A stretch of 49,934 nt of DNA from Candidatus Woesearchaeota archaeon (GCA_018657475.1 JABHXC010000022.1:1-49934), one strand, 5' to 3'. Positions 8,586-31,631 are shown, numbered from the stretch's first letter. A program made the numbers and translations. Notes: generated by a model not told the origin, from the letters alone.

Positions 8586-8732
8586 CGGACCTGGGAGGAC
8601 TTTCAAAGATTCTCAGATTTATGAGCGGGAACGCAGTTGACCGCGAATCCCCCTACCAGATCTGGGAGATCTGTTTGAACCCCCGATCCCAACCTTAGGA
8701 GGGTTGTGCCCTATCCACTAGGCTACAGGTCC
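8586..8732 (-). tRNA. tRNA-Arg(CCU) with a 74-nt intron in the T-loop (59/60)
   Basis: Hand fold: GGACCTG TA GCCT AGTGGATA GGGC A CAACC CTCCTAA GGTTG GGATC GGGGG TTCAAA[intron]T CCTCC CAGGTCC G. The spliced product is a canonical 73-nt cloverleaf. Confidence 0.85.
8600..8673 (-). other. BHB intron of tRNA-Arg (position 59/60, 74 nt)
   Basis: Outer helix GGGGG/CCTCC, central 4-bp helix TTCA/TGAA, bulges AA|C and AG|T. Splicing restores the T-loop TTCAAAT. There is an internal hairpin CAGATCT-ccc-AGATCTG. Confidence 0.75.
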
Positions 8733-24304: not shown

Positions 24305-27532
<3,228 letters not shown>

Positions 27533-27627: not shown

Positions 27628-28785
27628 TCAATCTGTCTTTTTTGCTTTATAAAATTCTAATTCTGCTAAATTTTCATTCACATAATTTGGATTTTCTTTG
27701 AAGAATTTTTCTTTAACATGGTCAGGCATATTATCAATTGTACCTTTGCCCGATAATCCTACTTGAGGTGTTTTTTTACAATAGTCCATTGCATTAAATG
27801 GTTGATTAGAATTTACTAATTCGTCATATTTTGGGAAATCTATCCAAGTATTCCAAACATTGTTTACTTTGAATTTTTTTCTTGCTAACATGACGACTCT
27901 TGAAGGAATATGTTCAGAAACAATTTCGTAGTCTTCTAGATGTTTAGATAATTGTTTTGTAAGAGAAACAACTTCTTCATGTAATGGCATGTTTTTCCGA
28001 CTTAATCGTTGTTGTGATGGGCCAACGTGCATGTACGCTTTAACTTCAATAAAGTCTGGTTGGCCTCTATTAATTAATTCTGCATACTTATCTAGATGTG
28101 AATCATTAATGTTTTTAATAATAGTCAATCTTACAGCGGTACGTTGTTGTTTCTCTTTTAGATAGTCTAATGATTGGTGTAATCCTTCCCAGAAATCTTT
28201 GAATAACGGAACATCAACTTCTTTTAACATTTCTTTAGTTGGTGCATCAATTGAGATGTAAAGTTGTGTTATTGGGTGTAAATCTTTAATTTGTTCTGGA
28301 TACTGGCCATTGGTAACAAGAAATGTTGAAATGCCATCTTTATTGAATAAATCTATTGACTGGTTAATTTGTGGATAAAAAATTGGTTCTCCAGTAAGTG
28401 AAAGAGCTACATGTTTTACTGTTCTTGACTTATTATATGCCGTTTTATTTGCTTTATCACTACCATTAAATCCAATGAGAAGTTTGTGGTGTGCTTCTAA
28501 TGATTCTTTATGGATTTTTTCAGGATCATCATTATCCCATTTCCACTCTGTTGCAACGGGTGCTTTGTAACCTCTCCAGCAAAACGTACATCGATTAGCA
28601 CAACTGATAGAGGTTGTCATTTGTAGACATTGATTACTCATAATACCATAGAATTTTAATTTATAACAGCCACCTTGGCCACGGATCATAGTTTTTGTCC
28701 AGCCACAAGTTTTTACAGCTGAATGATTACCTACTACTCTATAACCTTGTTTTTCTAGTTCTAGTTTAGCTTCTTGAGTTAACAT
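27628..28785 (-). CDS. taw1: tRNA 4-demethylwyosine synthase (TYW1/Taw1), radical SAM
   Basis: CANRCTFCWRG radical SAM cluster motif and overall TYW1-like sequence (KLKFYGI, SLTGEPIFYP). Confidence 0.85.
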   Translation of the reverse strand: MLTQEAKLELEKQGYRVVGNHSAVKTCGWTKTMIRGQGGCYKLKFYGIMSNQCLQMTTSISCANRCTFCWRGYKAPVATEWKWDNDDPEKIHKESLEAHHKLLIGFNGSDKANKTAYNKSRTVKHVALSLTGEPIFYPQINQSIDLFNKDGISTFLVTNGQYPEQIKDLHPITQLYISIDAPTKEMLKEVDVPLFKDFWEGLHQSLDYLKEKQQRTAVRLTIIKNINDSHLDKYAELINRGQPDFIEVKAYMHVGPSQQRLSRKNMPLHEEVVSLTKQLSKHLEDYEIVSEHIPSRVVMLARKKFKVNNVWNTWIDFPKYDELVNSNQPFNAMDYCKKTPQVGLSGKGTIDNMPDHVKEKFFKENPNYVNENLAELEFYKAKKTD

Positions 28786-28930: not shown

Positions 28931-28968
28931 AAAAAAAGTGAAAAAATGCGATTCTTATTAGGAATCGC
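28931..28968 (-). terminator. hairpin plus oligo-T terminator ending the RiPP-like operon
   Basis: Minus strand reads GCGATTC-CTAATAA-GAATCGC followed by ATTTTTTCACTTTTTTT. The hairpin spans the peptide stop codon. Confidence 0.6.
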
Positions 28969-29149
28969 AGTTGCTACCATCTCCACAGTCACAGTCATAT
29001 TCTACACTACGTGGCATAATATTGTAAGACAAGTTGCCTTTATTTGCTTCACAATTATTTGCGATGTAATCTTTCATTTCTTTATTTGTTTCAAATGAAT
29101 ATTCACTTGCAACGTCTTCTAATTTGTCAACCATTTTTTTAACCTCCAT
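28958..29149 (-). CDS. candidate RiPP precursor peptide with a Cys/Asp-rich C-terminus (DCDCGDGSNCDS)
   Basis: 63-aa ORF, or 58 aa if it starts at the second ATG (29134), which is preceded by the SD-like GGAGGT. It sits immediately after the radical SAM/SPASM gene and is followed by a terminator. It has an acidic helical leader-like N-terminus. Confidence 0.6.
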   Translation of the reverse strand: MEVKKMVDKLEDVASEYSFETNKEMKDYIANNCEANKGNLSYNIMPRSVEYDCDCGDGSNCDS

Positions 29150-30445
29150 CTCGTCCTAAATTGTTGTTTATTAATGTGGCAAATAGTGCACTAACGTACT
29201 GGTTATCTACACCTATATCACTACCAATGAAGACAAGATCATTACGGTTAAGAACTCTTATGGGGTATTTTTCTTTTATATAAAATGTTGTGAAATTATC
29301 TAAATATGCATATGCAGATGGGTCTTTAAATAATGTTGAGCCAAAACTTTCATCTCTAATCTTAAGATCTCTCTTTAGTTGAACACTATTAACTGGGTCA
29401 AAACTAGAAATTTTTGTTTTTTTATTATTTTTAATTGTATCTTTTTTAAGATTATCTTCGCCAGCCATATCTTTGTTTATTTTGTATGCATTTTCTTTGC
29501 AACCACCACCGCACTTGAAATCATATGCGCAACCAGTACAAGTATCATTATGGTATTGTTTTTTCCAAATAGGAATTTCTGCCCAGATCTCTAGCAATGG
29601 TCTTTCAAAAATATTACCATATGTTATATCAAAATGTTGACATGCTCTCAAATCACCATTACTTGCAACACCAGCAGAAGTTAGTCCAGCAACACAACTA
29701 CGATTAAAGATTGATCCATATTTATTAATATCATCAACCGCACAATAAGGAAGTGCATTTAATGTTCCTACTTGCATCCCAAAGTCACTCTTTAGTTCCA
29801 TTAATTGGTCTAGAAGAATAACAATATCTTTATTATTTAATATAAGTGAATCATAATTTTGAATCATGCCATTATTTGAAGGACTTATTCTTGTAGCGTT
29901 AAAACCTTTAAAACCTAGCTCATAAGCAAACTTTCCAGTATCATAAACAGAATCAAGTGTACTTTTATTTACAACCATATTTGCGCTTAAATAGATCCCT
30001 TTATTAGATAATAATTGAGCCCCTTTTACAAATCGTTTGAAACTCACTTTATTTTGAGTTGTTTTATTAAATTGATCTTCATCATGTGAAATGATGCTTG
30101 AGAGAACACCTACATTATATTCCATTAATATATCACAGATTTCATCATTAGCAAGAGTAATATTTGAATTAATACGAATACCTACATTACTTTCTCTATA
30201 GAGCTTTATTATCTGTTCAAGATTTTTTCCAAATAAAAATGGTTCACCGCCCGTTAAAGTAACATGAAAAACATCCGCTTCTATTATTCTTTCACTTATT
30301 TCTAATGCTCTATTTAGTTGTTTTTCAGTTGGTTTTTGCAGTTTCTCATCCTCTGATCTCCAGAAATTATAACAGTTGTACAACTATGATTACAATCATT
30401 GATTAATTCAAATTGTACTGCAATGGGGGATTTTGGTTTAATCAT
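29139..30445 (-). CDS. radical SAM/SPASM peptide-maturase-like enzyme with a PqqD/RRE-like C-terminal tail; reading frame disrupted near 30380
   Basis: SPASM motif CTGCAYDFKCGGGC with upstream C-x17-C; GGEPF. Frame A from ATG 30445 reads MIKPKSPIAVQFELINDCNHSC, and frame B (the ORF track) continues YNCYNFWR. Joined, they give CNHSCYNC, a CxxxCxxC motif. There is an ATGA overlap with the upstream peptidase gene. Confidence 0.75.
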
Positions 30446-30873
30446 CCTAATAACTTTTTAACAGCAAGATATCCTTTACTGTAATTTGGTTTTTTGAAAA
30501 ATGTGATAAGGTCTTTTATAGTAAATTCTTCAGCAGATTTTTTTTGGTCAGCAATATAACATGCTAATCCTTCAAACAACCATGCAGGGTCACTTGTTTC
30601 AAAACAACGTAGATAGTAAATGTGTACCATCTCATGAACAATTACTTTAAGCCACTCTTCATAATTTCTGTTTATTTCATCTTGATTAAGCACAAAAACT
30701 ATCTGTTTTCTGGGATATGCAAAGCCAACAACCCAATCCTGCTGCTTCATTTTTTCAAGATCTTTTTTTGAAAGTTCAATAACGTAAACGTCGTTAAGGG
30801 TTATATTAAATAATTCGTCAAGATATTCTTTTTTTTCAACAAGTAATGGGTTGATTTCAGAGATAGATCTCAT
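30442..30873 (-). CDS. small HExxH gluzincin-like peptidase (Peptidase_MA_2-like)
   Basis: VHEMVHIYY ... PAWLFEGLACYIA follows the HExxH ... W..EG.A.Y pattern. It is the first gene of the operon, and a TATA-like TTTTTATATAG lies about 25-35 nt upstream on the minus strand. Confidence 0.6.
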   Translation of the reverse strand: MRSISEINPLLVEKKEYLDELFNITLNDVYVIELSKKDLEKMKQQDWVVGFAYPRKQIVFVLNQDEINRNYEEWLKVIVHEMVHIYYLRCFETSDPAWLFEGLACYIADQKKSAEEFTIKDLITFFKKPNYSKGYLAVKKLLG

Positions 30874-31002
30874 ATATAGTATATTTTGTTTGTTTCTATA
30901 TAAAAATTTCTCAGTTTTTTACTATTTTATAGAAAAAACATAACTTTCAAAGTTTCTATTAAAAAACAATTGGAAACTGTCATATGTGACATATTTCCCC
31001 CA

Positions 31003-31020
31003 CAAACCCCAACACTTAAA
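31003..31020 (+). promoter_or_regulatory. 18-nt promoter element CAAACCCCAACACTTAAA (copy 1)
   Basis: Exact 18-mer repeated at 31651-31668. It ends 27 nt before ATG 31048, and its 3' part forms a TATA-like TTAAATAT. Confidence 0.55.
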
Positions 31021-31047
31021 TATTTATTTGTAATTTGTTTTATTGAT

Positions 31048-31281
31048 ATGAGATTTAAGCCATCTTTGCAAGAAGTTATTTTTGAACCAGACATTGATGA
31101 AAATTTAAGATTACTTAATAGGGATATTAGACGTTTGGATAAAAGTTTAGAAAGAGCAAGAGAATTAGCTTTTCCTGGACCTTCTCCTACTGTGGACGAG
31201 TATATAGTTGATTTTTATCATTCTTGTCAAGAAACAGCAGGTAAAGTTAAGAATTGGTTAGTAGATAGAATATATCGTTGA
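31048..31281 (+). CDS. hypothetical small protein (77 aa)
   Basis: The ORF track starts at TTG 30970, but that extension would cover the promoter element. ATG 31048 fits the TATA spacing. Confidence 0.5.
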   Translation: MRFKPSLQEVIFEPDIDENLRLLNRDIRRLDKSLERARELAFPGPSPTVDEYIVDFYHSCQETAGKVKNWLVDRIYR

Positions 31282-31364: not shown

Positions 31365-31631
31365 ATGGATGATTTACGGGAAAGAATTATGGGGATGTAT
31401 AAAACAATTGATGGTTTGTTACGTAATCGTGAATTTAGTAAATGTGATGAAGTTTTACAAAATGTTGATGTTTCTGGGTTAAATGAAGTGCAATTAGTAG
31501 GATATCTTAGGATTACTTTTCCAGCTCGGAATGAACTTCCTTATTGGAGAACATTGTTAGATGAAGTAAAAACTGAATTAAAAGAACGTGATGAATATGA
31601 TAATAGTATTTTTGTGGGATTAGAATATTAA
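31365..31631 (+). CDS. hypothetical small protein (88 aa)
   Basis: ORF with an AT-rich TATA-like sequence upstream. No motif recognised. Confidence 0.45.
   Translation: MDDLRERIMGMYKTIDGLLRNREFSKCDEVLQNVDVSGLNEVQLVGYLRITFPARNELPYWRTLLDEVKTELKERDEYDNSIFVGLEY

Follow-up and report, generated by a model that had tools for sequence, protein, structure and literature searches.

A radical SAM/SPASM enzyme, an HExxH protein and a Cys/Asp-rich peptide in a woesearchaeal contig: a likely RiPP cassette of an uncharacterised family

Three tightly coupled genes on the minus strand of a contig from a Candidatus Woesearchaeota metagenome-assembled genome (MAG; GCA_018657475.1, JABHXC010000022.1) raise the question of whether this archaeon carries a complete unit for making a ribosomally synthesised peptide with post-translational modifications (RiPP). 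The genes encode an HExxH protein, a radical S-adenosylmethionine (SAM) enzyme with a SPASM domain and a short Cys/Asp-rich peptide, and an earlier note, made from the sequence alone, had compared them with RiPP clusters of the sactipeptide/ranthipeptide type. We analysed the whole contig of 49,934 bp (~31% GC), here called the window, and compared the cassette with relatives in genomes, metagenomes and structure collections. The domains, the co-conservation of the genes and the peptide maturases found among the relatives of the enzyme support the proposed architecture, and we consider it likely that the cassette is a self-contained RiPP biosynthetic unit belonging to an uncharacterised family that resembles the sactipeptides and ranthipeptides. 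Surveys (PMC12144867, PMC13635244) report radical SAM RiPP clusters of archaea only as predictions from genome mining and remark that the number of RiPP products known from archaea is small. Literature searches on radical SAM RiPPs of archaea and of the candidate phyla radiation (CPR) returned generic genome-mining surveys only, and this cassette family is described in none of them.

Anatomy and conservation of the cassette

By direct reading of the sequence, the three genes lie head to tail within ~1.9 kb (28958-30873), and the TATA-like box, the close coupling of the genes and the final hairpin with its oligo-T run were all located where the earlier note had placed them. The features of the cassette are the following.

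30442..30873, minus strand: gene 1, HExxH protein of 143 aa (open reading frame (ORF) reading and a weak Pfam match to Peptidase_MA_2)
29139..30445, minus strand: gene 2, encoding in its intact form a radical SAM/SPASM enzyme of 435 aa (Pfam and NCBIfam domains)
30372..30394, minus strand: CxxxCxxC motif, Cys codons at 30394-92, 30382-80 and 30374-72, split by a missing C between 30377 and 30376
29454..29744, minus strand: SPASM auxiliary Fe-S region, with C235, C251, C269, C303, C306, C312, C316 and D331 invariant
29142..29387, minus strand: C-terminal tail of the enzyme, about 80-100 aa, with an R-x-E-x-F-G motif (winged-helix fold like that of a RiPP recognition element (RRE) in an AlphaFold2 (AF2) model)
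28958..29134, minus strand: gene 3, precursor peptide of 58 aa, with an alternative 63-aa start at 29149
28961..29011, minus strand: predicted core RSVEYDCDCGDGSNCDS (alignment A6)
30897..30906, minus strand: TATA-like box TTTTTATATA, ~28 nt 5' of the gene 1 ATG, found by reading
29142..29147, minus strand: Shine-Dalgarno-like GGAGGT, 7 nt 5' of the precursor ATG at 29134, found by reading
28937..28969, minus strand: terminator-like hairpin and T-run, with an 8-bp stem (28969..28947) spanning the stop codons and then TTTTTT

The gene 2 ATG at 30445 overlaps the stop codon of gene 1 as ATGA, and gene 2 ends at 29141..29139. The terminator-like hairpin has a fold z-score of -2.4. The TATA-like box hints, weakly in a genome of 31% GC, at a leaderless or near-leaderless archaeal transcript; a sigma-70 promoter scan (14 sites vs 14.1 expected) is uninformative for an archaeon.

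The 58-aa precursor, MVDKLEDVASEYSFETNKEMKDYIANNCEANKGNLSYNIMPRSVEYDCDCGDGSNCDS, begins with MVDKLEDVASEY and ends with MPRSVEYDCDCGDGSNCDS, and orthologous peptides begin at the Met equivalent to the 29134 ATG. Its core consists of a conserved (S/T)(V/T)(E/D)Y(D)CD block and then a variable Cys/Asp/Gly tail (alignment A6), and the peptides of DPANN archaea all begin with M-V-x-x-L-E-x-I, carry a (R)(S/T)(V/T)(E/D)-Y-D-C-D block and end in Cys/Asp/Gly stretches that vary. Within the 13-codon block MPRSVEYDCDCGD, 6 synonymous and 0 non-synonymous differences separate the window from a 59%-identical relative (L001); the reading frame of the peptide is therefore under selection, and this selection is purifying. 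The exact peptide is present on 10 contigs. A word-indexed search with it returned itself and one relative only, and the other relatives were reached through the neighbours of the enzyme. The window peptide matched no Pfam or NCBIfam family, SCIFF included, six related peptides matched no precursor model of NCBIfam, and neither the precursors nor the accessory proteins of related loci matched any of its curated models. That the Cys/Asp-rich ORF of 58-63 aa is a real gene, as had been proposed, is upheld by its conservation beside homologues and by its substitution pattern.

Relatives of the enzyme in other DPANN MAGs and metagenomes are 36-59% identical over 88-99% of the query, and peptide orthologues adjoin the enzyme in every DPANN locus examined. 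At L001, L002, L003-5, L183 and L184 the enzyme is directly followed by a 57-84-aa ORF and accompanied by an HExxH protein of 143-163 aa, while at L023, L181 and L182 a related peptide lies downstream of the enzyme with no HExxH protein nearby. The HExxH gene is upstream of the enzyme in some DPANN loci and downstream in others, and the flanks differ at every locus (rhomboid protease, restriction-modification, integrase, tRNA synthetases, NYN nuclease). In an all-against-all BLAST comparison of nine DPANN loci, the only common genes were those for the enzyme (9/9), the HExxH protein (6/9) and the peptide. Co-conservation, which the earlier note had put forward as a test of its proposal, thus extends to the C-terminal block of the peptide and to the HExxH protein, and the opposite outcome that it had named, a small ORF not conserved next to homologues, was not seen in the DPANN loci examined. 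An adjacent, co-conserved precursor with a leader/core layout, which is the generic mark of a RiPP cluster, is present. Among viral contigs the matches were confined to distant radical SAM proteins (~22% identity across the N-terminal half), and therefore the cassette is not evidently viral.

Scans of genomes and metagenomes extended the family to at least 160 loci, mostly relatives at 24-36% identity and not the nearest ones; the counts that follow hold among the matches listed. A downstream small ORF on the same strand, with 4 or more Cys among its 35 C-terminal residues, accompanies the enzyme in 49 of 76 complete long-tailed loci, against a background of 2.8% among the small ORFs of the same loci, and chance adjacency was rejected on this comparison. 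In these precursors Cys is followed by Asp in 121 of 305 instances (40%) and by Asn in 32 of 305, as in CDSCDSGDCDSCDSCDCDCD from Bacteroidales, CDCDCNCDCDATCD from Nanoarchaeota and CSCDGSCHCECDGGGDCDWG from gut Clostridia. An HExxH protein, many with HExxH...W-L-x-E-G, lies within about 1.5 kb at 37 of the 54 peptide-positive loci. Tail-less homologues of 340-390 aa, mostly from Chloroflexota, contribute a Cys-rich peptide in only 4 of 36 short-tail loci. Among the named hosts, Patescibacteria (Azam-, Pacei-, Davies-, Kaiser-, Morani-, Kerfeld-, Uhr- and Saccharibacteria) and DPANN archaea predominate, joined by rumen Bacteroidales and a few Clostridia and Deltaproteobacteria. The expectation that such a module would be unusual in a reduced archaeal genome has to be given up, DPANN archaea and Patescibacteria being the most frequent taxa among the named loci.

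A different leader start, of the form (R/T/Y)FF(V/I/L)(N/D)P…, recurs in Saccharibacteria, Clostridia, Bacteroidales and unclassified bacteria (among L044, L050, L051, L055, L057, L124 and L139), and precursors of rumen Bacteroidales have a common motif …(V/I)(V/A)YD(F/Y)(S/G)(D/N)L…, which points to leader motifs that may be clade-specific. In one patescibacterial locus (L024:5308-6337) the order is enzyme, Peptidase_MA_2 protein and a peptide of another kind, with Pro-rich Cys repeats (…PPCVGKPPPPCVGKPPPPCYGAPPCVGVPPCFNTCYGG).

The enzyme, its alleles and the surrounding contig

Domain searches of gene 2 used the frame-repaired protein. Radical_SAM (PF04055; 48.1 bits vs a cut-off of 29.5, 2e-12) and Fer4_12 score above the Pfam cut-off, as does the SPASM domain in both libraries (PF13186, 27.6 bits vs 21.5; TIGR04085, 44.1 bits vs 27). 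GGEPF, C-x17-C and CxxCx5Cx3C are all found, so that the full SPASM signature described in the earlier note is confirmed, with CxxxCxxC whole only in the intact allele. The three Cys of the SAM cluster and seven Cys of the auxiliary clusters are invariant across relatives (alignments A2 and A3).

Below the level of the domain, every curated NCBIfam model scored under its cut-off. The top score was to NirJ2, which is not a peptide enzyme (93.9 bits vs 500, 1.3e-26), and other models included GeoRSP (76.8 vs 400), AhbD (66.7 vs 500, 2.4e-18), PapB (NF047865; 63.9 vs 340), the anaerobic sulfatase-maturating enzyme (anSME, TIGR03942; 55.8 vs 349, 3.8e-15), the sactipeptide enzymes StsB (53.4 vs 625), SkfB (42.3 vs 300) and AlbA (40.8 vs 850), and the cofactor maturases MftC (50.6 vs 265) and PqqE (41.3 vs 381); no SCIFF-maturase model was among the top 25 matches. 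With NirJ2 first and PapB below its cut-off, membership among the thioether formers does not follow from the sequence alone. The AF2 model (pLDDT, the predicted local distance difference test, 92) has as its top Foldseek neighbours SuiB, SkfB, TigE, CteB, anSME and PqqE, with ChlB at rank 27; these alignments of the whole enzyme cover the core and SPASM only (~310-330 columns). A family profile searched against solved structures favoured SkfB (1.6e-24), SuiB (1e-19), PqqE (1e-18) and TigE, well ahead of anSME (7e-10). Because the curated models are not reached and SkfB, SuiB, PqqE and TigE match best, gene 2 is best described as encoding a SPASM enzyme of an uncurated family whose nearest solved relatives are peptide maturases.

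The NirJ2, AhbD and anSME matches, together with the name 'AdoMet-dependent heme synthase' given to one relative by the Joint Genome Institute (JGI), would suit a different account, in which a SPASM enzyme that matures a small molecule or a protein happens to stand beside a small ORF and an HExxH gene unrelated to it. We hold this to be extremely improbable. The scores are far below the curated cut-offs (4-10 times), the peptide and HExxH protein travel with the enzyme through varied contexts and gene orders, the tail-less 340-390-aa homologues are mostly without the peptide, and the BLAST comparison of the nine DPANN loci gave no further common gene, neither a sulfatase nor a member of the tetrapyrrole pathway. 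An anSME identity was rejected on the score and the lack of a common sulfatase, and a NirJ/AhbD function on the scores and the lack of a common tetrapyrrole gene; membership in a sulfatase-maturase or other non-peptide family, which the earlier note had named as fatal to its proposal, was not found.

The tail of the enzyme carries the invariant residues R364, E366 and G369. In the AF2 model, residues about 354-433 fold, with pLDDT above 90, into four strands and then three helices, strands being placed at 333-361 ahead of the helices. This resembles the layout of winged-helix RiPP recognition elements, in which an N-terminal three-stranded sheet precedes three helices. The tail profile matched winged-helix domains (eS25 at 1e-3, MCM, SelB, BlaI, TFE) and, weakly, SuiB residues 24-70 (E = 0.18), which we take to lie in the N-terminal RRE of SuiB. 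PF05402, the PqqD family, gave no match to the window tail, to 31 family tails or to 10 short stand-alone relatives. The tail had been described as a PqqD-type peptide-recognition element; the modelled fold and the weak matches point to recognition-element likeness, while membership in the PqqD family falls away. The tail is thus RRE-like in its predicted fold and a predicted leader-peptide binding domain. Searched against 1.84 billion representatives, the tail profile found 240 proteins, mostly the C-termini of enzymes of 415-470 aa. It also matched many chains of 85-135 aa (P0130-P0270), which may be stand-alone recognition domains or gene fragments. A sister subgroup with tails of 140-154 aa and without R-x-E-x-x-G occurs in Pelagibacteraceae, Prochlorococcus and Alphaproteobacteria (L028, L033, L036, L039, L043, L053 and others); among the matches listed it has no adjacent Cys-rich ORF, two of its loci have methyltransferase-like and HisF/HisH-like neighbours as judged by sequence, and it probably has a different function.

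The earlier note had spoken of a frame-repaired maturase, and the lesion is a 1-nt deletion inside CxxxCxxC. The window copy reads GTACA-ACTG where the intact allele has GTACACACTG, which encodes CNHSCTHCYNFW with the motif CNHSCTHC (DNA alignment A1); the window translation runs CNHSC-TT and then shifts frame, and the NCBI record annotates only a 414-aa ORF starting at TTG 30383. The comparison was made through contigs bearing an identical HExxH protein, the peptide-bearing contigs all ending inside the enzyme gene. Three of nine near-identical assemblies have the deletion (the window, L014 and L015) and six are intact (L016-L020 and a JGI contig encoding the 435-aa product), all contigs being at least 99.5% identical to the window. 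We regard it as probable that the deletion is a real loss-of-function allele segregating beside an intact one. Since intact alleles co-exist in the same population, the window copy of the maturase probably represents a null allele of natural origin.

A sequencing or assembly error, with a working maturase in the organism of the window, has a smaller but still appreciable chance of being the explanation. The difference is a single base in MAG data, six of the nine assemblies are intact and the rest of the window gene is free of lesions. Set against this, the site is not in a homopolymer, the same deletion occurs in three contigs from different records whose names (NODE_ and k141_ styles) point to different assemblers, and the contigs with the deletion group as one haplotype, at 99.96-99.98% identity to the window.

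Breaks within the radical SAM gene (window 29140..30445; L006-L013 and L016-L020) are seen in many independent assemblies of this population, and in MAG GCA_018667585.1 the gene is split over two contigs, which suggests strain-level heterogeneity at the locus. At the low-coverage contig end L017:3720-3807 the enzyme (window 29954) is fused to the peptide gene (29045), with AAATAAA as microhomology at the junction. The fusion keeps the reading frame (…NMVVNK/GNLSYNIMPRSVEYDC) and would represent an assembly chimera or else a rare variant with a deletion of ~909 bp.

Around the cassette, TYW1 (27628..28785; Pfam Wyosine_form, 2.6e-27) lies downstream as a separate gene, in agreement with the earlier description of it as adjoining yet distinct. 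Farther downstream, a GyrB ORF of 1067 aa (24305..27508, minus strand) holds an intein with a homing-endonuclease-like insert, and on L006 an identical copy of this gene carries a precomputed Pfam match to Intein_splicing. Two ORFs of 103 and 88 aa (30970..31281 and 31365..31631, both plus strand) are divergent from the cassette; they have no Pfam match and are not conserved beside the cassette in other loci. A tRNA call at 8662..8728 (minus strand) scored 31.7 bits with Rfam, just over the gathering score, and ARAGORN called no tRNA in the whole window.

The HExxH protein and the nature of the product

Gene 1 had been assigned a gluzincin pattern, HEMVH...WLFEGLACY, and this assignment holds for the metal ligands. 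HEMVH is encoded at 30636..30622 and Glu101 (30573..30571) lies in WLFEGLACY, 16 residues past the second His, giving the HExxH motif and downstream Glu ligand of gluzincins. Orthologues are 46-58% identical, H80, E81, H84 and E101 are invariant in six, and the protein is co-conserved with the enzyme. Peptidase_MA_2 (PF13485) scored 20.4 bits (4.7e-4), under the cut-off of 32.4, and further weak matches were to BSP, SprT-like and M1 in Pfam and to M1 aminopeptidases in a profile search of the PDB; relatives do pass the Peptidase_MA_2 model, with 43 bits vs 32.4 for the accessory protein of the CPR locus L024 and a precomputed PF13485 match for P0128. The Foldseek neighbours of the AF2 model (pLDDT 87.5) are all zincins (selecase, abylysin, jannalysin, collagenase, IrrE, HtpX), at E >= 0.03 and template-modelling (TM) scores of about 0.4-0.5. 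An NCBIfam scan at E <= 0.1 returned flagellinolysin and archaemetzincin only and no HEXXH-domain family (IPR026337), the library's inclusion of that model being unconfirmed. No obvious signal peptide or membrane segment was read from the protein sequence. The evidence is weak in each line, but all lines point to a hydrolytic zincin, and gene 1 is predicted to encode a minimal gluzincin-type leader peptidase.

The HExxH motif also occurs in a different kind of RiPP enzyme: alpha-ketoglutarate-dependent HExxH proteins have Asp, His and Gln of RiPP precursors as their targets, with hydroxylation of Asp or His among their reactions, and they include fusions with radical SAM enzymes such as ChlBH (PMC12636437). 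Gene 1 could by this precedent encode an Fe(II)-dependent oxygenase that hydroxylates the core, with a housekeeping protease removing the leader. The core is Asp-rich, ChlB is a structural neighbour of the enzyme and the peptidase-family matches of gene 1 are below cut-off, all of which would fit. We nevertheless think an oxygenase very unlikely, since the matches that exist are all to hydrolytic zincins (Peptidase_MA_2, BSP, M1, selecase, abylysin, collagenase), the NCBIfam matches do not include the HEXXH-domain family, the third gluzincin ligand, the Glu in xEG, is invariant, relatives at CPR loci pass the Peptidase_MA_2 cut-off, and the chemistry needs O2 while many hosts are anaerobes.

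Gene anatomy, domain identities, co-conservation of the three genes and purifying selection on the peptide are direct observations, and they can be joined into a pathway. The 58-aa precursor would carry an N-terminal leader with the conserved M-V-x-x-L-E-x-I start, to which the winged-helix, RRE-like tail of the enzyme may bind. With its SAM cluster and two auxiliary Fe-S clusters, the enzyme would then abstract H atoms in the core RSVEYDCDCGDGSNCDS, most probably so that Cys sulfur is joined to carbon of neighbouring residues as thioethers. These could be of the sactipeptide type (C-alpha) or of the ranthipeptide type (C-beta or C-gamma of Asp or Asn). The small cytoplasmic gluzincin-like HExxH protein would finally cut off the leader. 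Thioether formation is favoured because the cores are Cys-rich, the architecture is that of SPASM enzymes and PapB offers a precedent: in C-Xn-D motifs with n = 0-6 it forms links from Cys to Asp or Glu (PMC9413430), and therefore cross-links within motifs of the CD type are chemically precedented.

Several of the results weigh against a RiPP cassette of this kind. The best curated match of the enzyme is to a non-peptide family and the PapB model is not reached; the tail lacks a PF05402 match; the peptidase assignment of gene 1 rests below the Pfam cut-off and on weak structural matches; the enzyme gene is disrupted in the window; and BLAST among the nine DPANN loci gave no transporter or immunity gene conserved with the cassette. 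To these may be added that no member of the family has been characterised so far.

The want of a conserved transporter or immunity gene would be expected if the product were an intracellular peptide-derived cofactor or metal binder, made by the logic of pyrroloquinoline quinone (PQQ) or mycofactocin, and not a secreted bioactive peptide; the Glu-Tyr-Asp-Cys block or the Cys/Asp/Gly tail would then supply a functional group or metal ligands. An HExxH protein with no obvious signal peptide or membrane segment agrees with this, as does PqqE, one of the nearest relatives with a solved structure. Runs of Cys, Asp and Gly, CDGDGGCDGGCDGGD among them, resemble metal ligands, and the hosts are metabolically reduced symbionts. 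However, close relatives differ widely in the length and sequence of the core, as is usual for bioactive RiPPs but not for cofactor precursors, conservation of the Glu-Tyr block does not extend beyond the DPANN clade, and null and intact alleles in one population argue against an essential cofactor. On balance a cofactor or metal binder seems unlikely, and the sacti/ranthipeptide-like product is preferred.

Relation to known systems and meaning

The best chemical precedent for a CD-rich core is the PapB/PapA system of freyrasin, in which a radical SAM/SPASM maturase likewise acts on a core rich in Cys and Asp. The enzyme of the cassette differs from PapB in its score (63.9 bits against a cut-off of 340) and in the placement of its putative recognition domain, which is C-terminal, in contrast to the N-terminal position of this domain in PapB, CteB and SuiB. 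The core has C-D, C-x-D or C-N motifs in place of the regular C-X3-D of the PapB system, and the cassette has a dedicated mini-zincin and lacks a transporter. CteB of the SCIFF (thermocellin) system, SkfB and AlbA are similarly SPASM or twitch peptide maturases that make Cys thioethers, with SkfB the best solved sequence relative and CteB and SkfB top structural neighbours, but the enzyme does not reach their curated models and the precursor matches no SCIFF model. PqqE with PqqD, and MftC with MftB, combine a SPASM enzyme and a short precursor with a peptide chaperone of winged-helix type (RRE) and a dedicated peptidase, the latter two having their counterparts in the predicted RRE-like tail and the putative leader peptidase of the cassette, and PqqE is a close solved relative; unlike them, the cassette enzyme falls far short of the PqqE and MftC cut-offs, its tail is without PF05402 and its precursors are Cys-rich and hypervariable.

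Gene 1 is comparable to the minigluzincins (selecase, proabylysin, projannalysin), its top structural neighbours, and to Peptidase_MA_2 proteins, its best Pfam match, although its matches to both are weak. These are soluble zinc metallopeptidases with an HExxH...E pattern and a length of about 100-150 aa, and archaeal examples exist. No minigluzincin or Peptidase_MA_2 protein of that set is known to be a RiPP leader peptidase. Systems of the ChlBH type also pair a radical SAM peptide maturase with an HExxH protein acting on Asp-containing cores (PMC12636437), whereas the HExxH protein of the cassette is a separate protein of 143 aa that resembles hydrolytic gluzincins. Judged from its genes, the cassette appears to be a variation on the SPASM-dependent Cys-rich RiPPs, representing a family without a curated model that extends from DPANN archaea to Patescibacteria, rumen Bacteroidales and gut Clostridia.

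A broader possibility, which we offer tentatively and with much less confidence than the RiPP assignment itself, is that the cassette represents an undescribed cross-domain RiPP family defined by a SPASM enzyme that bears its recognition domain at the C-terminus, together with a 'CD-repeat' precursor and a mini-zincin. It would reside mostly in ultra-small episymbionts (among the matches listed), apparently moving as a three-gene unit, and would produce a densely thioether-bridged Cys/Asp peptide or a metal/redox cofactor that acts in the cell or at the symbiont-host interface and not as a classical exported bacteriocin. If this is true, the co-existing intact and null alleles would reflect a dispensable trait that is frequency-dependent or host-interaction-dependent.

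The cassette is also a small and defined test system, with three genes in ~1.9 kb, a known sequence for the intact allele and a conserved precursor motif. Pairs annotated as 'Radical SAM protein' and 'hypothetical protein' in CPR and DPANN MAGs could be re-annotated accordingly. An understanding of the cassette might bring to light novel cross-link chemistry at C-D or C-N motifs, a peptide-recognition domain in a new position together with a minimal leader peptidase, and a specialised metabolite of organisms with very reduced genomes.

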